Assembly (NCBI GenBank): GCA_047459655.1 | Contig: JAJREF010000001.1 | Location: forward strand, 264,219-328,218 | DNA from: Rhabdochlamydiaceae bacterium | GTDB lineage: Bacteria; Chlamydiota; Chlamydiia; Chlamydiales; Rhabdochlamydiaceae | Direction: 5' to 3' | DNA length: 64,000 nt | Shown here: positions 22,300 through 64,000 of the stretch, piece by piece | Position numbering within the stretch: the stretch's first letter is position 1 | Layout of the letters: each line of letters opens with the position of its first letter | Position numbers and translations under genes: made by a program | The notes under the pieces: model-generated | Told to the model about the DNA's origin: nothing | What the model saw: only the letters and a program-made list of their open reading frames with translations | Databases searched by the model: none

Positions 22300-23378
22300 T
22301 TACAACCTGGCACAGCGGTTAAGGAGAAGAGCATCTGCTAGCACTAGAGAGAGCATTGCTTGCACAACTGGAACAGCTCTAACTGCAACGCAAGGATCAT
22401 GTTTAGAGCCTGATGGCAAATGGAAAACGCCCGGTTGTTTCTCTAAAGAAAGCGTTTCTTGCTGGGCATATATGCTCGATGTTGGCTTAAAGGCGACAGA
22501 TCCCATAAGAGGCATGCCTGTAGAAATACCTCCTAAGACACCACCTGCGTGATTGGTTTTTGTTGTCACTTTCCCCTCTTCACAAAAAAAAGCATCGTTG
22601 TGATAAGAGCCTTGCATAGAAACAGAAGAAAAACCAGACCCTATTTCAAACCCCTTGGTTGCAGGGATAGAAAGCATCGCCTTCGCTAAATTAGCTTCTA
22701 ATTTTTCATACACAGGATCTCCCAATCCCGTTGGAAGACCTAAGGCAACAAAATTAATTGCTCCTCCAAGAGAGTCCCCTGATTGCTTGACCTCTGCTAT
22801 TTTTTGTTTCATTTCTTCCTCTTTGACTGGGTCAGGACAAAAAATAGTGCTTTCTTCAATCAAGTGTAAACAAGAAAGATCAACCTCTGCACATATGCCC
22901 CCAACCTGCGCAAGATAGGCAAAACAAGAGACTCCAAAATGAGCAAGTAGTTTTTGAGCAATAGCACCAGCTGCAACCCTGCAGGCCGTTTCCCTTCCAG
23001 AAGCTCTTCCCCTCCCCTATGATCAAACACTCCATACTTCTCTAAATAAGTATAGTTAGCGTGCCCAGGTCTTAGCAAATGCTTCACTAAGTTGTATTTT
23101 GTAGAATCAGGATTACAATTGGGGATGAGAATAGAAATCGGAGCGCCCGTTGTTTTTCCCTCAAATACGCCTGAGAGGATTTCAGCTAAATCAGATTCTT
23201 GTCTAGGTGATGTCAGAGGATGGTTCCCCGGAGATCTTTTTCTCAGCGCTTTTCGAACATCTTCCTCAGAAATTTCTAGTCCTGCAGGACAACCATCGAC
23301 GACAACGCCGATAGCTTTTCCATGAGATTCTCCCCATGTCGTGATCTGCAAGAGAGTTCCAAATGAGTTATGTCCCAA
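22300..23378 (-). CDS. aroC: chorismate synthase; frame broken once
   Basis: TTG start at 23378. N-terminal ORF has [21 protein letters not shown] and [11 protein letters not shown]-terminal ORF 22300..22863 has GGISTGMP and [13 protein letters not shown]. The junction is near 23000. Confidence 0.9.
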
Positions 23379-23794
23379 ATTGCCTCGTAGATAGATACTC
23401 TCCGAGAGTACATATCCTCAAATTCCCTTTCAATATCTTTTCCTAAAAAAAATGCAGGATAAGGCTTTTGCAAAAGACGCGCTTTCACAACTGCTTTTTC
23501 TTCTTTGATGTAGATGATCTTACCAATCTTTTTAAATAAGGCAACATTGTCAGGATCAAGAATAGCTCCACCCCCTGTTGCAATGACGGCACGTTCTACG
23601 GTTTCTAGGAAGGCAATCGCTTGTTTTTCAGCTAATCTAAAGGCCTCTTCTCCTACTTTTTCATAAAAAGTCCGGCAGTCATCTGCTATGAGATAATCTG
23701 TATCGATAAAATCATAGCCAATTTTTTTAGCTAAAGCCTTGCCAAACGTTGTTTTCCCACATCCCTTAAACCCGCATATAACTAGATTACTCAA
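23276..23794 (-). CDS. aroK: shikimate kinase (3' end overlaps aroC, uncertain)
   Basis: Walker [18 protein letters not shown], plus DTDYLI and [11 protein letters not shown]. Confidence 0.85.
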
Positions 23795-25053
23795 TATGAG
23801 CTCCTAAGCCTTTGAGTTGCTCAAAAAAGCGTGCATAACTTTTAACCACACATTCACTCCCTTCGATAATCGAACCTCCTTCAGCCCCTAGGCTGGCAAC
23901 TGCCAGTGACATTGCCATACGGTGATCAGCGTGAGATTCTAAAAAAGCACCTTTTAAATCAGAAGACTTTACTGTAACCCCATCCTTTTGCTCTGTGATA
24001 TGCGCGCCCATCTTTTTCAACTCTGCGACAATGCAACTAATACGATCTGACTCCTTTTTGCGAGCAATTGCTCCCCCAATAAGTTTAGTTGTTCCCTCTG
24101 CAAAGCACCCTACAACAGCTAAAAGAGGAAGAGCATCGATAAACTCATTTACATCGACATCTACCCCCTGCAATTTAGGTCCTTTAAGCACCTGGATTGT
24201 TTTTTCCAAAGGATCAATTTTAATACGCGCTCCCATGCGCTGCAGAAGAAAAATCACCTCCTTATCCCCTTGAACATCGTCGATATCAACATCCGTCAGA
24301 GTGAGCTCAGAATGAGTGATGATTGCAGCTACAATCGAATAACTAGCAGAACTCAGATCAGAGGGCACTGTGAAGTTAAAGCCGTGAATGATAGATCCCC
24401 CGGAAGGAAATATCTTTCAAAACGATCATGCTCATAAGCAATACCTAATCTGTCAAACCAATCCAACGTCAACCGAATCCAAGCCTTCTCACCAGGGTTC
24501 TCCACAAATAGCTCTGTTGCCCCTTGCGCAAAGGCAGAGGCAATCAGTAGCCCTGAAATAGGCTGAGAATCTTCCCCATTTACAAGAGCAGCCCCCCCCT
24601 TAGTGGCCCTTTGACGATGATAGGGGCATGCCCATCTCCTCGCAAAGAGACAGCAAAAGCACCCAATTGTGAAAGGCCCTCCAAAAGCGGCAGAACAGGC
24701 CTAGAATGCCTTATTGAGTGATCGCCAGTAACAACGCCATATCCGGGGAAAAGCGCTAAAACAGCCCCTACAAAACGTAAAACCTGCCCAGAATTACCCG
24801 CATCGATAACATCTTCTGGAGGGTGTAAATGCCCCCTAATTTCTAGGCGCTCATCAAAAACCGTAATATGGGCTCCCAGCTGCCTACAGGCCTTGATCAT
24901 TGCCTCGGTATCAGGGGAGTGGAGATAATTACAAATTACTGACTCTCCATGAGCCAGTGTGGCAAACAGAATCGCTCTTAATGTATGTGATTTAGAAGGA
25001 GGAACCTGGATAGTTCCCCCCAGAGAAGAGGGCCTTAAATAAACCGAGACCAT
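23787..25053 (-). CDS. aroA: 3-phosphoshikimate 1-carboxyvinyltransferase (EPSP synthase); frame broken at least twice
   Basis: N-terminal ORF 24580..25053 (VPPSKSHTLRAILFATLA, DAGNSGQVLRF). C-terminal ORF 23787..24368 (DHRMAMSLAVASL). The middle part, 24368-24600, is readable only with frame changes. Confidence 0.9.
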
Positions 25054-25778: not shown

Positions 25779-25940
25779 GGAGCCTCTGGATAAGTGCTTT
25801 GTCAGAGATTGCTGATCAATTTTTCGAAGAAGACGATTTTGGAGAGCGCAGCTAACATGCAGAATGTTCGTGAGTTCGAAAAATTTAGTATTCGCAAAAA
25901 TTGAAAGCAAGATTCGGCAAATGACTTGTCCAGAAACTCC
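25779..25940 (+). mobile_element. 162-bp MITE-like palindromic element, copy A
   Basis: The termini GGAGCCTCTGGATAAGTGCTTTG and CAAATGACTTGTCCAGAAACTCC are inverted repeats. The element is flanked by TTAA at 25775-25778 and 25941-25944. It is about 90% identical by eye to copy D. Confidence 0.8.
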
Positions 25941-42784: not shown

Positions 42785-42853
42785 GAACCTATCCCGATAA
42801 TAAGATTTCAAAGAACCCAAAAATCAACAGAAATTTATTATCGGGATAGATTC
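42785..42853. repeat. 69-bp palindromic element, an internally deleted relative of the 130-bp element at 60144
   Basis: GAACCTATCCCGATAATAAGATTTC...GAAATTTATTATCGGGATAGATTC matches the outer parts of both arms of the element at 60144..60273. Confidence 0.7.
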
Positions 42854-46126: not shown

Positions 46127-46854
46127 CAACATCCATGCCTGCCTTTACAGCTGAAGAACAATCCGTTAGAAAAAAGTGGCTCACGCTTTTTAAATTCTCT
46201 GTTGCATTTGCTTTTTTCCCCTCGATGCTCGTTGCCGTTGCCCTTTGTTTTACAAATCCCATTTATCTTCTATGGTATATTCCACTCTTGGTAATTATAT
46301 TTTTTGTTTTTCATTATTCCCTTTACCATTGTGCCTATAAACACCAAGGAACAACTGTATTAACGATTGACATAATATTTTTTATAATTTTCGCTGTATG
46401 GTCATTCCTTGCTATTCTTTTCTTATCTTATGGTTTTGAAAGACCTTATGACATTGGTTATTTACTCTGTATGCTTATATTGGATGTTTTTTGGATCTTT
46501 CCTAGTATTAAATTAAGAAAAATAAATAAAAAATACTCAAAATTAGCCTCTGAGAAGAAATGTGAATACCTTAGCTTAGAAATACAAAAGGCTTCCACCC
46601 TAGGAGAACTCGACATACGCCGTCACTTTGCATTTCAAACCCTTCCTTCCTTTGAAGCTCGTTTTTCTGAAGTATATGCAAAGAAAAGAGGAGCTGGAAC
46701 TCCTCTTATCTGTGATGACAGAAAAGTCTATCTAAAATTGCTCGCTAAAGCCAAACAACTATTTGCTTGTCGTATGTTGCGTGTAGCGCCTGCAAGGCAG
46801 CATATACCTAGCGTTGTTAATGCTAAACCTGCTCTCATGATTGCAGTATGGTGA
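46123..46854 (+). CDS. hypothetical membrane protein (start overlaps the gatB stop by ATGA; 3' end uncertain)
   Basis: 243 codons with four hydrophobic segments in the first 130 aa. The last ~40 codons are antisense to the convergent ORF 46728..47654. Confidence 0.4.
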   Translation: MTTSMPAFTAEEQSVRKKWLTLFKFSVAFAFFPSMLVAVALCFTNPIYLLWYIPLLVIIFFVFHYSLYHCAYKHQGTTVLTIDIIFFIIFAVWSFLAILFLSYGFERPYDIGYLLCMLILDVFWIFPSIKLRKINKKYSKLASEKKCEYLSLEIQKASTLGELDIRRHFAFQTLPSFEARFSEVYAKKRGAGTPLICDDRKVYLKLLAKAKQLFACRMLRVAPARQHIPSVVNAKPALMIAVW

Positions 46855-47654
46855 ATCTGGATAAATTTATTGATTCTTTGATAAAGATCATGATTTCTTG
46901 ATTCAGAGTGACTTCCCTGCGTGCTAGGTTTATAGCAATAAGCCACAGATAAACAGATTGCTCCGAAAGCAACCAAACAGATGCCGATAATATTCAAGCG
47001 GAAACTTAAAGCATTTTGCGCTTTTACTACACAAGTTTGCATGCTTGTCATTCCATCTCTCAAATGGTTGAGTGCTGCGTTTGCTTGCTGTTGTATTTGA
47101 GCCATCATTGTATCTTTTTCTGTAACGGTTACTTCCAAGGTTGCACAGCGATCAGCCAGTGTTTTGCTTAAATCTTGCGCCCCACCCAATTCACTGCGTA
47201 AGCCTTGAATAGTAGCATTGGCTTGCTCTTGCATTTGAGTCATCATTGTATCTTTTGCTACAACGGTTGTTTCTAGGCTCGTGCAACGATTAACCAGCAC
47301 TTTCCCTAGTTCTTGACTTTGATTGAGTTGGTTCTGCAAATCCGTAGCATGATCTACTAAAGCATCTAAGGTTTCTTCAGCCTGATCAAATAGTGCATCG
47401 ACTGCATTTTCAGGAAATACAGATAAAACAGGCTCTGCTTCAAAATCAATTTCGTCCAAAATATTTGCTGCTAATGCAGCTTGTTGATCGGCTGGTAATT
47501 GAGGGGTCATATTACCCAAATTTTCCTTGACCATTGTTGTAATTGCATCCATGCACCGCTTCATTGGAACGGGAATCTCTATTTCAGACGCTTCCATTAT
47601 TCGATACATGCTACACAAGCATGCTTCTGCAAGTTTCCTAGGATTAATTGTCAT
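46728..47654 (-). CDS. hypothetical coiled-coil protein with C-terminal paired hydrophobic segments (Inc-like candidate)
   Basis: 308 codons. Acidic N-terminus, two ~46-aa repeats (LVNRCTSLETTVVAKDTMMTQMQEQANA / LADRCATLEVTVTEKDTMMAQIQQQANA), then IIGICLVAFGAICLSVAYCY and AGLALTTLGICCLAGA. Confidence 0.5.
   Translation of the reverse strand: MTINPRKLAEACLCSMYRIMEASEIEIPVPMKRCMDAITTMVKENLGNMTPQLPADQQAALAANILDEIDFEAEPVLSVFPENAVDALFDQAEETLDALVDHATDLQNQLNQSQELGKVLVNRCTSLETTVVAKDTMMTQMQEQANATIQGLRSELGGAQDLSKTLADRCATLEVTVTEKDTMMAQIQQQANAALNHLRDGMTSMQTCVVKAQNALSFRLNIIGICLVAFGAICLSVAYCYKPSTQGSHSESRNHDLYQRINKFIQIHHTAIMRAGLALTTLGICCLAGATRNIRQANSCLALASNFR
47040..47303 (-). repeat. two tandem ~138-nt in-frame repeat units inside the coiled-coil gene
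   Basis: DNA and protein units align by eye with about 70% nucleotide identity. The period is 46 codons. Confidence 0.6.
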
Positions 47655-47787: not shown

Positions 47788-49200
47788 ATGAGGCGTGCAA
47801 TCTTTCTTCTTCCGATTTTGCTATGCTCCTGCTTTGCGAATAGAGCAGCAATCAACCCCTATTCCTACGCCCCACAAAGGCAAAATAAATTTTGGAAACC
47901 AGGCGGTAAAGATAAAGAAAAGATCGAAGGGTTAGAAGAAGACACCGGCCCTCTTTCTTTAGCAGAGATTGTTGATATTTCGCTGAGAAATAATCCAGAA
48001 ACAAGGGTTACCTGGGCAGATGCAAGGGTTGCAGCTGCACAGTATGGACAATCGCAGAGTTCTGATTTTCCCACATTAACAAGCACCTATGCATGGTCAA
48101 GATTTAGAAACGTCTTAACAGCAGCAGATGGTTACGGCGGAACGGTTGCTGAACCCTATTTCTTTAGCCAGTGGGGCCCGCAGCTACAGCTTTCTTACAC
48201 CCTCCTTGATTTTGGGCAGGGAAGGGCTGCTGCGCAAACAGCCAAAGAGCTTTTATATAGCGCAGGCTACATCCATAACCGTAAGATACAGACGGTGATT
48301 CAGCAAGTCACTTCTGATTATTACAGCTACATCTACCAGCAAGAGCTTTTAAAAGCTAATGAGCAAGATGTCATTACAGCTGAAACCACGTATGAAGCAG
48401 CCAAGGTCAGTTTTGATGCGGGCATTAAAAGTCTTTCCGATCTTCTCCAGGCCAAAACAAAATTACTCCAAGCTCAGATCCAGCTTGTGACTCAAAATCA
48501 GACTCTTGTCGTTTCTTTAGCGAACTTGCTAACCGACATGGGGCTAAAAGCAAATCAAAAAATTCCCATTCGCAACATGCCTGAAGTTCCTCCCATTGAA
48601 GAAATGCTGGCAAGTGCGCAAGATCTTCTCAATGTCGCTTTAGAAAAACGCGCAGACCTGTTAGCTGCGCAAGCAAAGGTTCAATCGGAAGAGTACAATA
48701 TCGTCGCTGTACGGAGGCAATTTTTCCCAACGGTGACCTATAACCTGAACTTTGGAGAGACCTCTTATTCAAAAATAGGAAGTGACCGGTATGACTTTGT
48801 AACCACATTTTCTTTGAACTTTCCTATTTTTTCAGGATTTTCAACTCTGAATTCTCTTAAAATAGCAGAAGCTAATAAGGAAAAAGCAGAGGCAGAGCTT
48901 GCTCAAACACAACTTCAAGTTGTGAAAGATATCACGACATCCCACAGCGCTGTAGAGCAAGCTTTCGAAGCCCTCAAATTTTCTTCTGAGCTTTTAAAAG
49001 TAGCAGAAGAGCAGTACCAAGTAGCAATTGCCCTCTACAAAGCAGGCACAGGTAATATCTTAGAAGTCGTCTCTGCACAGGGTTCTCTTGCCAATGCAAG
49101 AGCGCAGTGTGCAAATGCTAATAATGAGTGGTTCACATCTCTCATCAATTTAAGTTATGCAGCTGGCTCTTTACAGCCTCCGGAGGCCAAAACTCTATGA
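47788..49200 (+). CDS. TolC/OprM-family outer-membrane efflux protein (lipoprotein signal)
   Basis: 470 aa with lipobox ILLCSC. It has the two-repeat OEP architecture, with DFPTLTSTYAW and FFPTVTYNLNF segments. Confidence 0.85.
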   Translation: MRRAIFLLPILLCSCFANRAAINPYSYAPQRQNKFWKPGGKDKEKIEGLEEDTGPLSLAEIVDISLRNNPETRVTWADARVAAAQYGQSQSSDFPTLTSTYAWSRFRNVLTAADGYGGTVAEPYFFSQWGPQLQLSYTLLDFGQGRAAAQTAKELLYSAGYIHNRKIQTVIQQVTSDYYSYIYQQELLKANEQDVITAETTYEAAKVSFDAGIKSLSDLLQAKTKLLQAQIQLVTQNQTLVVSLANLLTDMGLKANQKIPIRNMPEVPPIEEMLASAQDLLNVALEKRADLLAAQAKVQSEEYNIVAVRRQFFPTVTYNLNFGETSYSKIGSDRYDFVTTFSLNFPIFSGFSTLNSLKIAEANKEKAEAELAQTQLQVVKDITTSHSAVEQAFEALKFSSELLKVAEEQYQVAIALYKAGTGNILEVVSAQGSLANARAQCANANNEWFTSLINLSYAAGSLQPPEAKTL

Positions 49201-49201
49201 A

Positions 49202-49364
49202 GAGACCTCTACACAACTCTGGTAAACCGCTAAAATCGCGCTTTTTCCGCAGATTTTATTTTTCATATCTCGCCTACTCCATTGAGTATGTCTTCGATAT
49301 AAAATCAAAAATTTGCAAAAAAATCTTCGATTTTTTCGATTTGCCAGAGTTGTGCAGAGGTCTC
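49202..49364. mobile_element. 163-bp MITE-like element inserted between the tolC-like and MFP genes
   Basis: Its 21-bp terminal inverted repeats, GAGACCTCTACACAACTCTGG and CCAGAGTTGTGCAGAGGTCTC, differ at one position. It is flanked by the direct repeat ATGAA at 49197-49201 and 49365-49369. Confidence 0.8.
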
Positions 49365-50435
49365 ATGAAATGGGCATATTGGACTATTCCCCTACTTTTG
49401 CTTGGCTGCTCTAAAAAAGAGGTTCCACCTCCTACGCCCCCCTATGTTACAACCGGACAGGCCTCCTCCCAAAATGTCCCTTTTTATTTTGAATATGTAG
49501 GACACGTTGAAGCCTACCAATCGGTTGAAATCAAAGCTCAAGTCACCGGACTCATCAATGGACAATACTTCACCGAAGGACAAGAGGTGAAAGCAGGAGA
49601 TCTCCTTGTCACTATCGATGACCGCCCTTTTAGAGCAGCCCTCTCTAAGGCAGAGGCTGAACTTGCACAAAATATTGCAACTTTAAGGCAAGCAAGAGAA
49701 ACCGTTGAAAGGTACTCTCTCCTAGTAAAAGAAAGCTATATCTCTCAACTTGACTACGATCAGTTTGTGACAAACGTCTACACAGGTGAAGCAGCTATTA
49801 AGCAAAATTATGCAGATATTGAAACAGCTACGATCAACCTCAATTACTGCACAATCACCGCTCCCATCACTGGTGTTACAAGCAAGCTGCTCATCAACGT
49901 AGGAAATTACATCCCCGTCGGCGGAGAGAATCCCCTGATGAGCATTAACCAAGTCAAACCCATCAAAGTTGAGTTCAATGCTCCTGAAAAAGATCTTCCC
50001 TATATTACGCTTGCACAAAGCAAAGAGCCCCTCAAAGTGATTGCTTACTTGCAAGGAGCCCCCATTGAAGGAAAATTGCACCTGATCGACAACCAAGTCA
50101 ATACGGGGACGGGCATGATCCTTTTACAAGCGGTTTTTCCCAATGAAGATATGCGTCTATGGCCTGGAGAATTTGTTGATGTACGCGTCATTGTTGAGAT
50201 CAAAAAAGATGCTACAGTTATTCCAGCACAAGCTGTTTTACTTGGACAAGATGGACCTTATGTCTATGTATTAACAGAAAATAGGACGGTTGAATTGCGC
50301 CCTGTTTTACCTGGTCTCAAGGAAGGTAGCATGGTAGTCATTGATAAAGGAGTTTTTCCTGGAGAAACTGTGATTATCGAAGGGCAGATTAATCTTTCTC
50401 CTGGCGCCTCTGTTAGCATTAAAAACAAAATATGA
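49365..50435 (+). CDS. RND efflux membrane fusion protein (AcrA/MexA family lipoprotein)
   Basis: ATG at 49365 gives MKWAYWTIPLLLLGCSKKE (lipobox LLGC). YVGHVEAYQSVEIKAQVTG and NLNYCTITAPITG are HlyD/MFP-like. Confidence 0.85.
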   Translation: MKWAYWTIPLLLLGCSKKEVPPPTPPYVTTGQASSQNVPFYFEYVGHVEAYQSVEIKAQVTGLINGQYFTEGQEVKAGDLLVTIDDRPFRAALSKAEAELAQNIATLRQARETVERYSLLVKESYISQLDYDQFVTNVYTGEAAIKQNYADIETATINLNYCTITAPITGVTSKLLINVGNYIPVGGENPLMSINQVKPIKVEFNAPEKDLPYITLAQSKEPLKVIAYLQGAPIEGKLHLIDNQVNTGTGMILLQAVFPNEDMRLWPGEFVDVRVIVEIKKDATVIPAQAVLLGQDGPYVYVLTENRTVELRPVLPGLKEGSMVVIDKGVFPGETVIIEGQINLSPGASVSIKNKI

Positions 50436-53400
50436 ATATATCTAAGATCTTTATTGAGCGTCCTATCATGACAACACTTGTGATGATAGCGATTTTATTC
50501 TTTGGGATTTTTGCTTATAAAGCGCTGCCTGTCAGTGATCTGCCCGATGTTGAATTCCCAGCCATCACCGTTACAACGAATTATCCAGGTGCAAGCCCTG
50601 AGACAATCGCCAACAATGTGTCAACCCCTCTTGAACAAGCATTTTTAACTATTGGGGGTTTAAAAAACATTATCTCGACAAGTAGCACGGGAAGCTCTTC
50701 CATCGTTTTGCAATTTGCTATAGACAGATCAATCGATGCTGCAGCGCAAGATGTACAAGCAGCCATTAACCAAGCAACTCCCCATTTGCCGCAAGATCTT
50801 CCTTTTGCACCGACCTATCAAAAAGTTAATCCTTCCCAGACCCCTATCGTCTGGTTTGCGATCTCCTCTGCTACGATGCCCTCCTACCAACTCTATGATT
50901 ACGCCTATTCTTTTATAGGTGAACGTATCAGTACCATTGATGGTGTAGCGCAGGTTGTCGTCTTTGGAAGCCCCTTTGCAGTCAGAGTACAGGTAGACCC
51001 TCTGAAACTTGCAGCTAAAGGCATTGGACTTGAGGACGTTGCCTCTGCGTTAAAATCTCAAAACGTCAATATCCCAACCGGAAACCTTTACGGTAAACAC
51101 ACTGAGTTTTTCATCAATGTCGATGGACAGTTAAGTAAAGCAGCAGCCTACAACTCTATCATCATTAAAAACGAAGATGGAGCTATTGTGCGTTTGCAAG
51201 ATATCGGACAAGCTTTAGATAGCCTCTCCAATGACAAACAGTATCTTCGCTTTATCTCATCAGAAAAAGATCTCAACACCGTTGTTTTTGGAGTCAGGAC
51301 CCAGGCAGGGACAAACTCCATGACTGTGATCGAAAACATCAATACTATCCTGCCCCATCTTGAATCTGCCTTACCAGGGTCTGTACATCTTCGCCGCGTG
51401 TTTGATAAATCGATTTTTATTGAAGAATCAGTTGTCGATGTTCAATCCACTCTTTTGATTGCCTTCTTACTAGTTGTCTTGGTGGTTTTTTTCTACCTTG
51501 GAAAAGCAAAAAATACACTCATCCCAATGCTCGCTCTTCCCATATCTGTGATTGGAACATTTATCGTCATGTCTGTGATTGGCTATACCATCGATATCCT
51601 CTCGCTCCTGGCCATTACACTCTGTATCGGTTTTCTTGTCGATGATGCAATTGTTGTATTAGAAAACATCGTAAGACACGTAGAAATGGGAAAATCAGCC
51701 CTACAATCTGCCCTAGATGGATCAAAAGAGATCTCTTTTACCATCCTCTCAATGACCCTTTCTCTAGCCTCTATTTTTATTCCTCTCTTGTTCATGGGGG
51801 GATCATCGGAAGGATCTTTCATGAATTTGCAGTCGTCATTTTAACGGCTGTTTTAATATCTGGTTTTGTATCGCTCTCTCTTACACCCATGCTCTCCTCC
51901 CGCTTTATTGATACGGAGCACATAAAAAAAACATGGGTAGAAAAAATCGCGGGCATCTTCAATAAAACACTCCTCAACCTATATGAAAAAGGGTTAAGAA
52001 AGGTCTTTGCACACCCACGCATCACGTTATGTTTGGGGATTTTTAGCGTTGCGCTTAGCATCTTTCTATTCAAACAGCTACCGACAGATTTTTTGCCTCA
52101 GGAAGACCTTGGGGCTTTTCAAGTGTTTTCCCAATCTGTCGACGGAACTTCCACCTTCCAGACAGCAGAATACCAAAAAAAGATCAACCGCACCATCCAA
52201 CAATGCCCCCATGTCGATACAGCCTGCTCATTCTCTTCTTATCCTGATGACAATAAAGGATTAGTGTTTGTGAACCTGAAGCCATTTAATCAGCGCCCCT
52301 CTATTGAAAAAATCATGAAAGAGATGAAAGCAGAGCTTCAAGCCATCCCTGGCCTGCAGATTTTTTGTAAACCAATTCCCCTGATCGATCTCGATGTAGC
52401 AACCTCTTCTACAAAATCAGCCTACCAATATACGCTCCAAGGACTCGAAATAGATAGCCTCTATGCAGCTTCTAGCGTCATGCTCAAAAAGATCACAGCG
52501 CTTCCAGGGTTTAAACAAGTATCAACCGATTTAGAGCTTGGCCAACCTCAACTCATGGTGCATATTTTAAGAGATAAAGCCTCTTCTCTGAATATCTCTT
52601 CTCAAGCTATCGAACAAGCACTTTCCTATGCCTATGGAGCAACCTACCTATCCCCCATCAATACACCTCAAAATCAATATTATGTCATACTCGAGGTAGA
52701 GCCGAAGTTCTATAGAGATCCCACCATGTTATCCCTACTCTATGTGAAATCGATGACAGGCGACCTGATCCCTCTAAGCTCTGTTACCAAGATGGAACAA
52801 AAAGCAAGCCCCCTCAATATCAACCGCATTGCAGGCCTACCAGCTGTGAACATCTTCTTTGATCTTGATCAAGTTCCCCTTGGAACAGCGCTAGAGCAGA
52901 TCCACCAGATTGCCTTAGATGTACTACCACCCGATGTTACAGGTACACTTGTTGGAACAGCCAGCACTTTTAAAGAGTCGTTCAAAAATCTAAATTTTCT
53001 TCTACTTATCGCTTTTTTTCTCATCTACATTATCTTAGGAATTCTCTATGAGAACTTTTTTCATCCTCTTACGGTGATGTCAACACTGCCCCCCGCTGCC
53101 CTAGGAGGAATCCTTACCCTTCTCCTATTTGGCCATCCCCTTTCTCTTTATGCATTTGTCGGATTCATGCTACTTCTCGGCATTGTGATGAAAAATGGAA
53201 TTATCTTGATTGATTTTGCAAATGCAGCCATTCAGCAAGGAAAAGATCCCGTAGAAGCGATTACAAGCGCATGTCTTACACGCTTTCGCCCTATACTTAT
53301 GACTACTTTTTCAGCCCTCATGGGAGCTGTTCCGATTGCTTTGGGAATAGGTGGCATGACAGCCCAAGGAAGGATCCCTCTTGGCCTTGTGATTGTAGGA

Positions 53401-53490
53401 GGGCTTCTCTTTTCCCAGCTTCTCACCCTCTTTTTTACACCGATTGTCTATCTCTATTTAGAAAAAATCCGTGAAAAGATCTCTACCTAA
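50432..53490 (+). CDS. RND multidrug efflux transporter (AcrB/MexB family); frame broken once
   Basis: FIERPIMTTLVM starts the protein. Also GFLVDDAIVVLENI, and the C-terminal half 51889..53490 with MKNGILLIDFA. The frame change is at the G6 run 51796-51801. Confidence 0.9.
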
Positions 53491-60143: not shown

Positions 60144-60273
60144 GAACCTATTCCCGATAATAAGGTTTCTCTCGATTTTTGGACTCTTTTGCTAGGGTAA
60201 TATCCACCGCTTATATAACCCCTCGCAAAAGAGTCCAAAAATCGAGAGAAACCTTATTATCGGGAATAGGTTC
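60144..60273. repeat. 130-bp palindromic element with perfect 49-bp inverted arms and a 32-bp spacer
   Basis: The left arm 60144-60192 (GAACCTATTCCCGATAATAAGGTTTCTCTCGATTTTTGGACTCTTTTGC) is the exact reverse complement of 60225-60273. Confidence 0.85.
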
Positions 60274-60389
60274 CTATAATGCACATAATGCGAACAAGGG
60301 TAAAAACTTTCAAGTCCTTTGTTGCTTTTTGCTTGATACGATTCATCTCTATCCTTATATGTAGATTTTTAGGAGCTTTGTATATACAG

Positions 60390-61592
60390 ATGAGATTTTT
60401 TCTACTCTTTTTTCTGATTTTTATGAGCTCTCTCTTCTGCGCTGCACAGGAAAACACCTCTATTCAGAAGAAAAAAATCTTAATTCTGTCCAGTAATGGA
60501 GGCTACGGCCACAGAGCAGCTGAGAAAACCCTAGAAGTTATTTTAGGGAAAAATTATGAATTTAAGGTCATCTGTCCCATAGAAGAAATCAAGATGTGGG
60601 GAGTCAGTGGAAGTGAAGAAGTCTATAACTATTTACTCAAAGAAGGCTGGATCCATTCGACTAACATCATCAGCAAGCATGTTGCTCCGAAATTATTTAG
60701 AAACAGGCGCAGGGCTATTGAACGACTCATCGACAGACACATTGAGTGTGCAAAACCAGATATTATTATTTCTTTGATTCCGTTCATTAATTATCCCGCC
60801 ACAGAAGCAGCTAGAAAAAGAGAGGTACCTTATCTTCTCATTACAACCGATAATGACCTTCGTAATTGGGTGCATGGTCTTCACTGCGTCACTCATCCCA
60901 ACTTTAAAATAACGGTAGGTGCTAATCTTCCCTCTACATGTGGCCTTCTAAAACAACGCCATATTCCAGAAAAAGACATCAATATCATCGGACTACCTAT
61001 TAGAACCTCTTTTAAGGCCTCTAAAAATATTGAACAGCTTTATCAAGAGTATGCGATTCCTAAGGAAAAACCCACCATCTTAATCATGATGGGAGGAGCA
61101 GGTGGAAAAAAATGTTTAGAGTATACACACGCTATTGGAATTTTGCCTATAGGAGTGCATTTGATTGTCTGCACAGGAAAAAATGAGCAGCTAAAAGAAA
61201 AGCTTGGCAAGATAAAACTACATCCCGCAAATTCAATAACCATCATGGGTTTTACAGACAAGATAGCAGATCTCATGACTCTTTCTGACCTAATGATTAC
61301 AAAACCAGGTCCTGGCGTTATCAACGAAGCAATTGCAACTCATCTACCGGTCCTAATCGATAAAACTGTCTCTCCCATAAGTTGGGAAAAAGCAAATATC
61401 AACCTAGTTATGCAATACGGAATTGGAGATGCAGTCAGAGACATGAAAGACCTGCCGCAACTTCTAAATAAGTACCTCTTTAACGCTCCATTTCAACAAA
61501 AACTGGAAGAAGCATTTAATCAACTACCCTCTAACGAGTTCAATGAAAAGGTCAAAGATGTAGTCGACTCTATGTGCGCTCACAACCCTTGA
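60390..61592 (+). CDS. MGDG-synthase-like (UgtP/processive diacylglycerol glycosyltransferase family) glycosyltransferase
   Basis: ATG at 60390 gives an N-terminal TM. ILILSSNGGYGHRAAEKTL and ITKPGPGVINEAIATHLPVLI are the family N- and C-terminal signatures. Confidence 0.8.
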   Translation: MRFFLLFFLIFMSSLFCAAQENTSIQKKKILILSSNGGYGHRAAEKTLEVILGKNYEFKVICPIEEIKMWGVSGSEEVYNYLLKEGWIHSTNIISKHVAPKLFRNRRRAIERLIDRHIECAKPDIIISLIPFINYPATEAARKREVPYLLITTDNDLRNWVHGLHCVTHPNFKITVGANLPSTCGLLKQRHIPEKDINIIGLPIRTSFKASKNIEQLYQEYAIPKEKPTILIMMGGAGGKKCLEYTHAIGILPIGVHLIVCTGKNEQLKEKLGKIKLHPANSITIMGFTDKIADLMTLSDLMITKPGPGVINEAIATHLPVLIDKTVSPISWEKANINLVMQYGIGDAVRDMKDLPQLLNKYLFNAPFQQKLEEAFNQLPSNEFNEKVKDVVDSMCAHNP

Positions 61593-61594
61593 GA

Positions 61595-61646
61595 TATTTG
61601 CAAAAATTGGCAACAAGATTCGGCAAGTGACTTGTCCAGAGGTTCC
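61595..61646 (+). repeat. 52-bp right-end fragment of the 162-bp MITE family
   Basis: TATTTGCAAAAATTGGCAACAAGATTCGGCAAGTGACTTGTCCAGAGGTTCC matches the last third of the full copies. It starts 3 nt after the glycosyltransferase stop codon. Confidence 0.75.
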
Positions 61647-62079: not shown

Positions 62080-62140
62080 TTTTCTAGCGATTTCAAAAAA
62101 TTGATCAGCAATTTCCGATAAAGCACTTGTCCAGAGGCTC
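62080..62140 (-). repeat. ~60-bp end fragment of the 162-bp MITE family (inverted)
   Basis: ...AAAAAATTGATCAGCAATTTCCGATAAAGCACTTGTCCAGAGGCTCC matches the left third of the family in reverse orientation. It ends 56 nt upstream of the peptidase ATG. Confidence 0.7.
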
Positions 62141-62196
62141 CTTCAAATTCTTCATGTCTATTTGATTTTTTAACGCTAAAAAACTATGCTTATGAT

Positions 62197-64000
62197 ATGC
62201 AAAAAACATATCCTTGTGGACTTTGGCCTTCTTCTATCACAACTGCCATGGTTACCTCTGCACAAAAGCGCTTTGACAACATCGTGATCGACAATGGAGA
62301 AATCTATTGGAGTGAAATGCGCCCAACAGAGGGTGGAAGATGTGTCATTGTCAAAAGAGCAAAAGATGGGAAAATCGAAGATGTTCTACCTCCTCCCTAC
62401 AGCGCGCGCTCAAGGGTTCACGAATATGGCGGATTATCATTTGCTGTAGGACAAGGAGCTGTCTATTTTGTAAACGACAAAGACCAACGCATCTACATCA
62501 AAGACAAACCCCTGACAGAAGCAGGCACTCGATTTGCAGATCTTCGAGTTGTAGGCAAACATCTCATTGCAGTTGGGGAAAAGGGAAAGATAACTTCCTT
62601 GCTGCTATTGATATTAGCACAGGCAAACACGAGATCATAGCCTCAGGAAAAGATTTTTATGCCTCCCCTGAATTAAGCCCCGATGGAAAAAAACTCGCTT
62701 TTTTGACCTGGAGCTGCGCTCGCATGCCATGGGATGGCAGTGATTTATGGGTAGGGGATTTTCAAGAGGCTCATCTATCAAATATGCAACAAGTCGCTGG
62801 CAGTGAGACAGAATCGATTTTCCAGCCTCAGTGGTCTCCTCAAGGAATATTACATTTCATCTCTGACAAATCAGGATTTTGGAATTTATATAAATTAGGA
62901 AAAGAGGGCGTAGAAGCTATTTGTCCTAAAAAGGCAGAGTTCGGATTGCCTCAGTGGGTCTTTGGACTTTCTACCTATGCTTTTTTAGGAGATCAAATCT
63001 TAGCCACTTATGAAGAAAAAGGGGTTTGGCAGGTAGCCACTCTCCCTCCTTTTAAAAAACTAGAGATCCCAGGAAGTTATTTCTCTCAGATTAAAATCCA
63101 AGATGGGCACATCGCTTTTATTCAAGGCTCTTTTTCAGAAGGCAAATCGATTGCTTATCTCCCCCTTCCAACCGTTGACTTCTGAAAGCATTCAGACGCT
63201 TTCTCACAACCGAGTTCCCCATCTAGATAAGAAAGACTTTTCTATCCCTCAATTCATCTCTTTTCCTAGCAACAACGGAAGAGTCGTCCACGGATTTTAC
63301 TATCCTCCTGCTAACCAAAACTTCAAGCTTCGGCCTGAAGAGCTGCCACCTCTCATTGTCAAAACGCACGGAGGCCCCACAGGATGTGCCCCCAATACCT
63401 TTGATCTTAAAATCCAATACTGGACAAATAGAGGGTTTGCCATACTCGATGTTGACTACAGTGGAAGTACGGGCTATGGAAAAGCCTACAGAGATCTACT
63501 CAAGGGAAACTGGGGTATCGTCGATGTGGAAGATTGTGAGGCGGGCGCTAAATTTTTGATCGAACAGAAACTTGCAGACCCCCAGAAGCTTGCCATCACC
63601 GGAGGGAGTGCAGGAGGTTTTACAACACTTGCCGCTCTTACCTTTGGAAAGATGTTCACGGTGGGAGCTAGCTACTACGGCGTCTCAGACCTCTCTCTTT
63701 TAGCCAATGAAACCCACAAGGCAGAATCCCACTACCTTGATCAACTGATTGCTCCTTATCCAGAGAAAAAGAGATCTACGATGCTAGATCCCCTATCTTC
63801 TCCGTTGATAAACTCCACTGCCCCGTTATTTTTTTCAAGGCCTTGAAGACAAAGTTGTCCCTCCGAACCAAGCAGAAAAAATGTATACCGCCTTAAGAAA
63901 GCACGGCATTCATACAGAGCTCATCATGTATGAAGGAGAGCAGCACGGTTTTCGCAAAGCAGAAAATATCCGAGACTCTCTTGAAAAAGAACTCGCCTTT
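62197..64000 (+). CDS. S9-family serine peptidase (prolyl oligopeptidase / acylaminoacyl-peptidase-like), runs off the right edge; frame broken at least 3 times
   Basis: The beta-propeller part is in ORFs 62197..62640 and 62340..63185 ([19 protein letters not shown]). The hydrolase part is in 63103..63846, with the nucleophile motif ITGGSAGGF. The final frame reads [12 protein letters not shown]. Confidence 0.8.

Follow-up and report, generated by a model that had tools for sequence, protein, structure and literature searches.

Small mobile elements in bacterial operons

The element reported here, 163 bp long and lodged in a tripartite efflux operon of an uncultured Rhabdochlamydiaceae bacterium, resembles several described bacterial repeats. 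Chunjie, a MITE from Geobacter uraniireducens Rf4 (Chen et al. 2008, Genetics 179:2291), is 178-235 bp long, has 9-bp direct repeats and occurs in dozens of copies (PMC3184786, PMC10969869). Like Chunjie, the present element is small, A+T-rich and hairpin-forming, bears terminal inverted repeats of 21 bp along with direct repeats, and appears to be a recent insertion inside a transporter operon, with an operon structure that in the Chunjie case was reportedly left undisturbed. By contrast, it has a 5-bp (or 4-bp) direct repeat and one known copy, and it lies exactly in a stop/start overlap, both codons of which are recreated; the two show no sequence relationship and come from different phyla. 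Mycobacterial interspersed repetitive units (MIRUs; Supply et al. 1997) are mobile-looking repeats at start codons between operon genes, and the MIRU ORF overlaps its neighbouring gene by 4 nt, an arrangement thought to keep coupling and to make the insertion harmless (PMC12548453, PMC3184786). The present element likewise occupies the start codon of an operon gene and retains a 4-nt overlap to the upstream ORF (the left ATGA). However, the stop of the MIRU ORF overlaps the downstream start, whereas here the frame of the element fuses to the adaptor gene as an N-terminal extension, and MIRUs are shorter (46-101 bp), often tandem, and without long terminal inverted repeats.

The Rickettsia palindromic elements (Ogata et al. 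2000), of about 150 bp, come from an obligate intracellular bacterium and add peptide segments to proteins (PMC10969869). They are palindromic, stop-free and in frame with the host ORF, all of which holds for the 163-bp element, and the likeness is one of description, with no sequence similarity established. They differ in lying inside coding sequences, whereas the 163-bp element lies between two genes and extends a signal peptide that would be removed by cleavage. The Correia elements are a Neisseria MITE, a copy of which lies in the mtrCDE transcript, where the repeat duplex is cut by RNase III and expression is changed (PMC10969869). Here too a tripartite RND efflux operon has a MITE-like element in its transcript. 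By contrast, Correia elements have a TA duplication, 26-bp repeats, an IHF site and hundreds of copies, and the mtrCDE copy is in the leader and not in a gene-gene overlap. Assignment to the Correia elements was rejected, as the direct repeat here is ATGAA, not TA, and the repeats are unrelated by direct reading.

The element, its empty sites and a related family

The window is the whole 64-kb stretch of DNA that was analyzed, and all coordinates refer to it. The operon and the element comprise the following features.

47788-49200, + strand: gene for a TolC-family outer-membrane efflux protein (OEP), 470 aa (Pfam OEP, E = 7.8e-59)
49182-49186, + strand: Shine-Dalgarno-like GGAGG, read from the sequence, 10 nt upstream of the left ATG
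49197-49201: left target copy ATGAA, with the original ATGA overlap (ATG 49197-49199, TolC stop TGA 49198-49200)
49202-49364: MITE-like non-coding transposable element, 163 bp, 37% G+C, a single long hairpin
49202-49222: left terminal inverted repeat GAGACCTCTACACAACTCTGG, 21 nt
49344-49364: right terminal inverted repeat, 21 nt, one mismatch to the left
49365-49369: right target copy ATGAA, giving the ATG of the 356-aa adaptor ORF
49365-50435, + strand: gene for an RND periplasmic adaptor (membrane-fusion protein, MFP; Pfam HlyD_D23 and HlyD_3)
50432-53490, + strand: RND (AcrB-type) transporter gene, in ATGA overlap with the adaptor stop and split into ORFs of 470 aa and 533 aa

The three genes lie on one strand with overlapping stops and starts, and their Pfam families (OEP, HlyD and ACR_tran) mark them as an OEP-MFP-RND tripartite RND efflux operon. 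The TolC-like protein (MFS8563132.1, 'TolC family protein' in NCBI) has the same length of 470 aa in all relatives, and the 356-aa adaptor ORF, which carries a lipoprotein signal peptide (MKWAYWTIPLLLLGC), is 100% identical to MFS8563133.1 (356 aa). Both genes are intact and of ancestral length. The adaptor/RND junction is an ATGA overlap here, and relatives have ATGA at both junctions.

A sequence-only reading of this DNA had described a 163-bp element with 21-bp inverted repeats differing at one base, bracketed by ATGAA, and both the arms and the flanking pentamers were recovered at the positions listed above. The junction reads ...AAAACTCT ATGAA, GAGACCTCTACACAACTCTGG ... CCAGAGTTGTGCAGAGGTCTC, ATGAA ATGGGC, with an end repeat of GAGACCTCTRCACAACTCTGG and a looser motif of RVMCTCTNNAYAA. 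The terminal repeats match at 20 of 21 bases (such matches arose in 0/100 dinucleotide shuffles of the window), and looser pairing extends the arms to 37 nt at 86%. The two copies of the direct repeat are identical (5/5), although the true duplication may be the 4 bp TGAA, a length like that in the related family described below, with the fifth base, A, matching by chance. The computed hairpin energy is -66 kcal/mol for the element alone and -76 kcal/mol in context (z = -9.9), and the hairpin base is a near-perfect duplex of about 25 bp. The element has no coding capacity recognized in Pfam, and searches with its peptide against 5.8 billion clustered proteins and 1.84 billion representatives gave no homologue. 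No Rfam family matches it at gathering scores; permissive Rfam matches to plant microRNA-precursor families (47.6 bits against a cut-off of 140) were rejected as reflecting a generic long hairpin.

The sequence-only reading also held that the OEP and MFP genes had overlapped in ATGA before the insertion, and comparison with relatives bears this out. Every related locus recovered, in four lineages, has an uninterrupted 4-base ATGA in which the OEP stop meets the MFP start, with neither an ordinary intergenic spacer nor the element.

L001/L002/L012: lineage with 86% MFP identity, uninterrupted ATGA
L005/L006: lineage with 80% MFP identity, uninterrupted ATGA
L008: lineage with 74% MFP identity, uninterrupted ATGA
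L009=L011: lineage with 75% MFP identity, uninterrupted ATGA

In three of these four lineages the empty site has the whole pentamer ATGAA, and synteny is kept on both sides, with OEP-MFP-RND followed by a Legionella_OMP gene in the relatives as here. The loci L013-L017 (33-47% identity) are too distant to inform on the junction. The combination of inverted repeats, a direct repeat and empty sites is the standard signature of transposition. Of the features of a prokaryotic MITE, those found here are a 163-bp length without a transposase, terminal inverted repeats, a direct repeat, and filled versus empty sites. Because related lineages have the same operon with an uninterrupted ATGA and no insert, the transposition is best read as recent, and the near-perfect inverted repeats likewise indicate a young insertion. 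At the level of sequence, the target duplication is shown to have rebuilt the stop of the TolC-like gene in the left copy and the start of the adaptor gene in the right copy, the codons being present as the sequence-only reading had stated. The mobility of the element itself we infer from this one event, with one known copy and no autonomous insertion sequence with matching ends found.

Two alternatives are highly improbable, namely an ancestral element that the relatives lost by precise excision and an assembly artefact. Nothing specific speaks for them beyond the confinement of the element to one genome lineage. Ancestry would require scar-free excision in each of four lineages, while both the inverted repeats (20/21) and the direct repeat (5/5) show almost no decay. 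An artefact is at odds with the complete architecture of repeats and duplication, which mis-joins do not create, and with the record of the 412-aa read-through product on two JGI contigs besides the NCBI record. This product is annotated identically by JGI/IMG on both contigs (P0121), so the insertion and its frame are not peculiar to one annotation of one record.

Searches for further copies of the 163-bp element gave none in the 64-kb window. The exact 21-mer repeat is absent from GTDB representative genomes, JGI metagenomes and IMG/VR, the two-arm repeat pattern has no match in JGI metagenomes, and blastn with the element found nothing in PLSDB plasmids or among all fetched loci. Neither was an autonomous partner detected, as no ORF within the window is flanked by matching ends, and the ten ORFs scanned beside the repeats contain no transposase domain. 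The window does, however, contain four full and three partial copies of a different, 162-bp element, here termed family 2. The full copies are as follows.

25779-25940: family-2 copy, 162 bp, flanked by TTAA
29576-29737: family-2 copy, inverted, flanked by TTAA
34826-34987: family-2 copy, flanked by ATAA
61651-61812: family-2 copy, flanked by TCAA and abutting a partial copy (61595-61646)

Family 2 resembles the 163-bp element in size, hairpin form, stop-poor frames and termini (GGAACCTCTGGACAAGT vs GAGACCTCTRCACAACT), of which 12-14 of 20 anchored positions match (at least 13/20 is reached by random 20-mers of the window at a rate of about 3e-4). By contrast, the interiors do not align, and family 2 is 162 bp long, multi-copy, and flanked by 4-bp direct repeats (TTAA, TTAA, ATAA and TCAA). 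The two probably use a related transposase. The label 'MITE' given by the sequence-only reading therefore stands as a reasonable one, since the ends of the element resemble those of a multi-copy family in the same window, although the searches yielded no second copy of the element itself. TIMEs (Tn3-derived inverted-repeat miniature elements) have a consensus of a 5-bp duplication and Tn3-type repeats of about 38 bp (GGGG...TAAG). A Tn3-derived TIME, suggested by the 5-bp repeat and 37-nt arms, was rejected, as the ends start with GAGACC and contain no Tn3-type motif, and family 2 makes 4-bp repeats. Four IMG/VR matches to the family-2 end pattern were dismissed as chance, comprising the 18-20-mer alone, with three of the four loci sharing their surrounding sequence. 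The family-2 peptide has one match, a hypothetical protein in IMG from the same organism.

Probable translation across the element

The left ATG opens a frame that passes through the whole element into the adaptor gene, as the sequence-only reading had noted in placing a 56-codon extension ahead of the signal peptide.

49197-49364, + strand: 56-codon stop-free frame from the left ATG, 168 nt, in frame with the adaptor gene and giving a 412-aa product

This frame is stop-free in 3.65% of composition-matched shuffles. Both element families are stop-poor, with one to three of six frames open (two or more are open in at most 2.4% of shuffles), and since this is a trait of both families, read-through needs no special selection at this locus. 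The frame of the TolC-like gene, which runs through the element to the right TGA, has two internal stops, no start and no usable ORF. The databases differ on the adaptor start, with a long form of 412 aa in IMG and a short form of 356 aa in NCBI. Upstream of the left ATG, the GGAGG at 49182-49186 lies within the palindrome CCTCCGGAGG, and the closest relative has the same CCGGAGG. Opening of the region from -18 to +12 is computed to cost 8.7 kcal/mol at the left AUG, 9.0 kcal/mol at the reconstructed empty site and 12.0 kcal/mol at the right AUG, the last being about 3 kcal/mol costlier than either the ancestral site or the left AUG.

The following sequence of events is proposed. An element without a transposase was mobilized in trans and inserted into the ATGAA stop/start overlap, and repair of the staggered cut duplicated ATGAA, leaving the upstream TGA in the left copy and recreating the adaptor ATG in the right copy. 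After finishing the TolC-like gene, ribosomes would most likely start again at the left ATG, since the ancestral ATGA overlap and the GGAGG 10 nt upstream are kept and the 168 nt are open and in frame. They would then melt the hairpin during elongation, yielding a 412-aa precursor with a basic 56-residue extension ahead of the lipoprotein signal peptide. Because of this position, cleavage by signal peptidase II ahead of the lipobox cysteine would remove the extension, and the mature adaptor would stay as it was. A separate start at the right ATG would be disfavoured, as this codon abuts the stem and its sole Shine-Dalgarno-like motif (AGAGG at 49356-49360, inside the right repeat and 4 nt before the ATG) is paired within it. 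The duplex of about 25 bp at the hairpin base is a plausible RNase III substrate, and cleavage there could leave the adaptor and transporter less expressed than the TolC-like gene. The account as a whole, insertion into an ATGAA overlap with read-through likely, is held with good confidence. The statement of the sequence-only reading that coupling is now interrupted is thus probably too strong, given the intact left ATGA and GGAGG and the open frame, through which translation could continue into the MFP gene.

It is rather unlikely, though worth weighing, that the inserted 168 nt are a simple spacer and, in line with the sequence-only reading, leave the two genes uncoupled, the adaptor being made from the right ATG only, at a changed level. 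This is the start chosen by the NCBI pipeline, with AGAGG 4 nt before it, and RNase III cleavage in the stem could free it. In addition, coupling is reported to be weaker where structure directly follows a stop codon (PMC12548453), so that the left ATG may be poorly used. Against these points, the right AUG is the dearer to open by about 3 kcal/mol, its Shine-Dalgarno-like motif is both stem-paired and badly spaced, and the ancestral overlap and GGAGG are still present at the left ATG, which is in frame and has no stop before the adaptor.

A more elaborate possibility, that the hairpin has taken on the role of a cis-regulatory RNA (an RNase III site, an mRNA stabilizer or an attenuator) and is maintained for that function, is improbable. 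The hairpin is very stable, and there is precedent in REP and Correia elements, which change the stability of mRNA segments when they lie within operons (PMC10969869, PMC3184786). However, the element is carried by one lineage while four related lineages do without it, its near-perfect repeats point to a young insertion, and it has no Rfam family at threshold. A promoter-like site does fall within the element (49208-49236, 9/12 matches), but such sites are no more numerous in the region than in shuffles, and the element contains no terminator-like site and no U-tract for termination.

Possible decay of the operon and significance

A -1 frameshift interrupts the RND gene at a G6 run (51796-51801) and is identical in sequence in an independently assembled Logan contig, whereas the protein is intact in relatives (1024-1026 aa). 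Other genes in the window are also split, including those for an MFS transporter (in three pieces), chorismate synthase, EPSP synthase and an S9 peptidase. Pure homopolymer sequencing error is unsupported for the breaks in the MFS transporter, where there is no long run, but is conceivable at the G6 run. The frameshift, which the sequence-only reading had missed, bears on whether the stoichiometry of the pump still matters.

With its RND gene frameshifted, the pump may already be defective, and it is a real possibility, if somewhat short of an even one, that the insertion is neutral, falling in the operon of a dead pump whose RND gene is a pseudogene in a decaying genome, with no selection on the effect of the element on expression. 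The recurrence of the frameshift in the Logan contig and the other split genes, such as the MFS transporter without long homopolymers at its breaks, favour this, as does the documented insertion-sequence expansion with pseudogenization in Rhabdochlamydia (PMC9723776). However, the TolC-like and adaptor genes have kept their integrity and ancestral length, and the RND gene, its one frameshift aside, shows no additional stop and matches the relative's protein at 86-91% identity. The frameshift, lying in a G6 run, could also be a consensus error or reversible slippage.

The case adds a neat example to events of a known kind and does not represent a new kind of system, and it leaves the understanding of such elements unchanged. 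It illustrates that a transposon can enter the tightest of operon junctions without destroying either gene, because the duplicated target holds both the stop and the start. The junction with and without the 168-nt in-frame hairpin provides a pair for testing re-initiation versus RNA unfolding in coupling, and the same pair could test the length of N-terminal extension that a lipoprotein signal peptide tolerates. The two database entries for the adaptor, 356 aa in NCBI and 412 aa in IMG, leave its annotated start ambiguous.

A broader and doubtful proposal is that the lineage hosts a superfamily of stop-poor hairpin transposons that prefer targets in which stops tend to occur (TTAA, ATAA, TCAA and TGAA), rebuild the codons and are translated through, in-frame read-through at the TolC/adaptor junction being a coupling-preserving design of the family rather than luck. 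If this were true, insertions would fall at the ends of genes and in stop/start overlaps, in a 'translation-tolerant' strategy uniting features of MIRUs and the Rickettsia palindromic elements, for which the searchable literature holds no description in Chlamydiota. For the Rhabdochlamydiaceae, in which only insertion-sequence expansion has been reported so far (PMC9723776), the 163-bp element, family 2 and the many split genes together indicate that small transposons are active and genes are decaying in this environmental chlamydial lineage.

Structure and origin of the insertion

The efflux operon and the element that separates its first two genes are arranged as follows.

47788-49200: TolC-family outer-membrane efflux protein (OEP) ORF, upstream of the element
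49202-49364: inverted-repeat element
49365-50435: RND periplasmic adaptor ORF with lipoprotein signal peptide MKWAYWTIPLLLLGC, downstream of the element
50432-53490: AcrB-type transporter gene, in ATGA overlap with the adaptor gene

The adaptor is 100% identical to MFS8563133.1 in NCBI ('MAG: efflux RND transporter periplasmic adaptor subunit [Rhabdochlamydiaceae bacterium]'), and the same organism is also present in JGI/IMG. Just upstream of the operon, a 308-aa ORF without a Pfam domain (46728-47654, minus strand) contains two direct repeats of about 101 nt (47077-47315, spacing 138 nt, 74% identity).

Positions 49170-49400 read ...CCTCCGGAGGCCAAAACTCT-ATGAA-[ GAGACCTCTACACAACTCTGG ... CCAGAGTTGTGCAGAGGTCTC ]-ATGAA-ATGGGCATAT, with the element in brackets. 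The element is 163 bp long, with 37% G+C (41.6% for the window), and a repeat finder returns arms of 37 nt with 86% complementarity (49202-49238 and 49328-49364), the outermost 21 nt of which differ by one mismatch. This 21-nt repeat has no further match in the window at up to 3 mismatches, and none of 100 shuffles gave any. The element RNA is predicted to fold into one hairpin with paired ends (-66 kcal/mol alone, -76 kcal/mol in a 231-nt context; z = -9.9 against shuffles). From the left ATG (49197), 168 nt or 56 stop-free codons run in phase into the downstream ORF.

The junction was compared with that at loci encoding the nearest adaptor homologues, which fall into four lineages.

Related loci and adaptor identity to the window
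L001, L002 and L012 (the last a 'Parachlamydiales bacterium' MAG): 86%
L005 and L006: 80%
L009, identical to L011: 75%
L008: 74%

All share the gene order OEP (470 aa), adaptor (354-356 aa), RND transporter (1024-1026 aa) and a Legionella_OMP-family gene. The sequence-only reading had reconstructed an ATGA stop/start overlap by removing the element and one ATGAA, and had proposed looking for that overlap, uninterrupted, in related genomes; the four-base overlap of OEP stop and adaptor start is present at every related locus, without an insert (...TATGAAA...; three lineages have ATGAA and one has ATGAG), and the reconstructed window sequence is exactly the relatives' arrangement. At the level of sequence, the inverted repeats, the direct repeat and the empty orthologous sites combine to establish that the element arrived by transposition. 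By the same comparison the insertion postdates divergence from the 86% lineage, and the near-perfect repeats indicate that it is young.

The label of MITE given in that reading fits the small size, lack of coding capacity, terminal inverted repeats, target duplication, and filled and empty sites, while a second copy was not found in the window, the 64 kb of the source genome read here. The 21-mer repeat has no match in GTDB representative genomes, JGI metagenomes or IMG/VR, the two-arm pattern none in JGI metagenomes, and no copy was found in PLSDB plasmids; the element peptide has no homologue among 5.8 billion and 1.84 billion proteins.

A second family of small elements in the window

The window also contains a separate family of elements ('family 2'), with four copies of exactly 162 bp showing 91-96% identity to a reference copy.

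25779-25940: full copy, direct repeat TTAA
29576-29737: full copy, direct repeat TTAA
34826-34987: full copy, direct repeat ATAA
61651-61812: full copy, direct repeat TCAA
15311-15352, 61595-61646 and 62092-62143: partial copies

These are hairpins with terminal inverted repeats (GGAACCTCTGGACAAGT...), which, anchored at the termini, agree with the element end GAGACCTCTRCACAACT at 12-14 positions out of 20; for 20-mers drawn at random from the window, a score of at least 13 has a frequency of about 3e-4. The shared end motif occurs in the window at these termini and one other place only, and the interiors of the two families do not align. On these sequence comparisons we place the element as a diverged member of a local group of small transposons with inverted repeats, whose movement probably depends on related transposases. 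A target duplication of 5 bp is the direct reading at the adaptor junction; family 2 has 4-bp repeats, and by that analogy the duplication could instead be TGAA plus a chance A.

Both families are stop-poor, with 1-3 of six frames open (two or more are open in at most 2.4% of shuffles), so the open frame at the junction, found in only 3.65% of element shuffles, need not reflect selection at that site. Inserted at random, this element would be open roughly one time in three.

The four full family 2 copies share one open frame, whose peptide has a sole public protein match, an IMG hypothetical protein of the source organism. Directly beside the end of one partial copy, a full copy has inserted. 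In a 629-aa ORF without a Pfam domain (13458-15347), the final 12 codons and stop come from a partial element preceded by TTAA (15307-15310), so that a transposon remnant now stands in place of the original C-terminus. A 130-bp near-perfect palindrome (60144-60273; 54-nt arms, 98% complementary, beginning GAACCT...) stops 5 nt upstream of the ATG of a glycosyltransferase-like ORF (60279-61592), and a shorter related palindrome lies at 42785-42853.

Start-codon choice at the adaptor gene

The left ATG retains all ancestral start features, namely its ATGA overlap with the stop of the TolC-like gene and a GGAGG 10 nt upstream. The right ATG (49365) directly adjoins the stem, and the one Shine-Dalgarno-like motif it has, an AGAGG 4 nt upstream, is base-paired within that stem in the computed fold.

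Computed cost of opening positions -18 to +12
Left AUG: 8.7 kcal/mol
Reconstructed empty site: 9.0 kcal/mol
Right AUG: 12.0 kcal/mol

The GGAGG lies within a perfect 10-nt palindrome at the end of the TolC-like gene (49178-49187, CCTCCGGAGG), which is also found in the closest relative, so the adaptor ribosome-binding site may have been partly masked even before the insertion.

Ribosomes re-initiating at the left ATG would find the insert open and in phase, and would therefore continue through the hairpin to produce a 412-aa precursor. Public annotations of the same sequence differ on this start (IMG, 412 aa, P0121, 49197; NCBI, 356 aa, MFS8563133.1, 49365). The 56 extra residues are basic (12 K/R versus 5 D/E), too low in hydrophobicity for a membrane segment, and precede the lipobox. 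In lipoprotein maturation, signal peptidase II cuts before the lipidated cysteine, so the extension would be removed together with the signal peptide, and the mature adaptor would be the same as before the insertion, provided that targeting still works. Where the sequence-only reading had the coupling interrupted, we think, given the intact left ATG context, the open frame and the costlier right ATG, that it was instead redirected. As caveats, coupling is reportedly lowered by structure just after the stop codon (PMC12548453), and the duplex of about 25 bp at the stem base would, by analogy, be the kind of substrate cut by RNase III, which cleaves such duplexes in Correia-containing mtrCDE transcripts (PMC10969869).

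Probable transporter decay and known systems

The AcrB-type transporter ORF, intact in the relatives, is broken into pieces of 470 and 533 aa. Comparison with four relatives maps a one-base loss to ATGGGGGG-ATCATC, where they read ATGGGAGGCATCATC, and the -1 frameshift site is a G6 run (51796-51801). A consensus error at this run is a possible explanation; an independent Logan contig (run SRR17230300) matches at 100% identity across 1,500 bp that take in the G6 run, and IMG records the 470-aa fragment on two contigs. Splits also affect further genes in the window. An MFS sugar transporter is in three pieces, without a long homopolymer where it breaks, and chorismate synthase is in two; EPSP synthase is truncated, and an S9 peptidase is fragmented, with one fragment sharing a 90% cluster with a 644-aa protein.

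16982-18221, minus strand: split-gene region
22300-24368, minus strand: split-gene region
62197-63846, plus strand: split-gene region

This suggests either a pseudogene-rich genome or an indel-error-prone assembly; the pattern has the look of true gene decay, such as that described in Rhabdochlamydia oedothoracis (PMC9723776). With a dead transporter, what the insertion does to pump stoichiometry would not matter.

The element combines known themes. Like the Chunjie MITE of Geobacter, it lies inside a transporter operon, which in that case was reportedly undisturbed (Chen et al. 2008, as cited in PMC3184786 and PMC10969869), and it is in frame with the adaptor ORF, as Rickettsia palindromic elements and Coxiella QMITEs are with host ORFs (PMC10969869, PMC5896051). 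What sets it apart is that it landed in an ATGA overlap, that both codons were regenerated and that its open frame is fused to a cleavable signal peptide. A non-exhaustive literature search found no report of MITEs in Chlamydiota. The insertion into the overlap is real and a textbook-style example, correctly read from sequence alone in all its factual statements (length, repeats, ATGAA flanks and 56-codon open frame). Its significance would grow if the whole genome showed such elements systematically targeting stop codons and being translated through.
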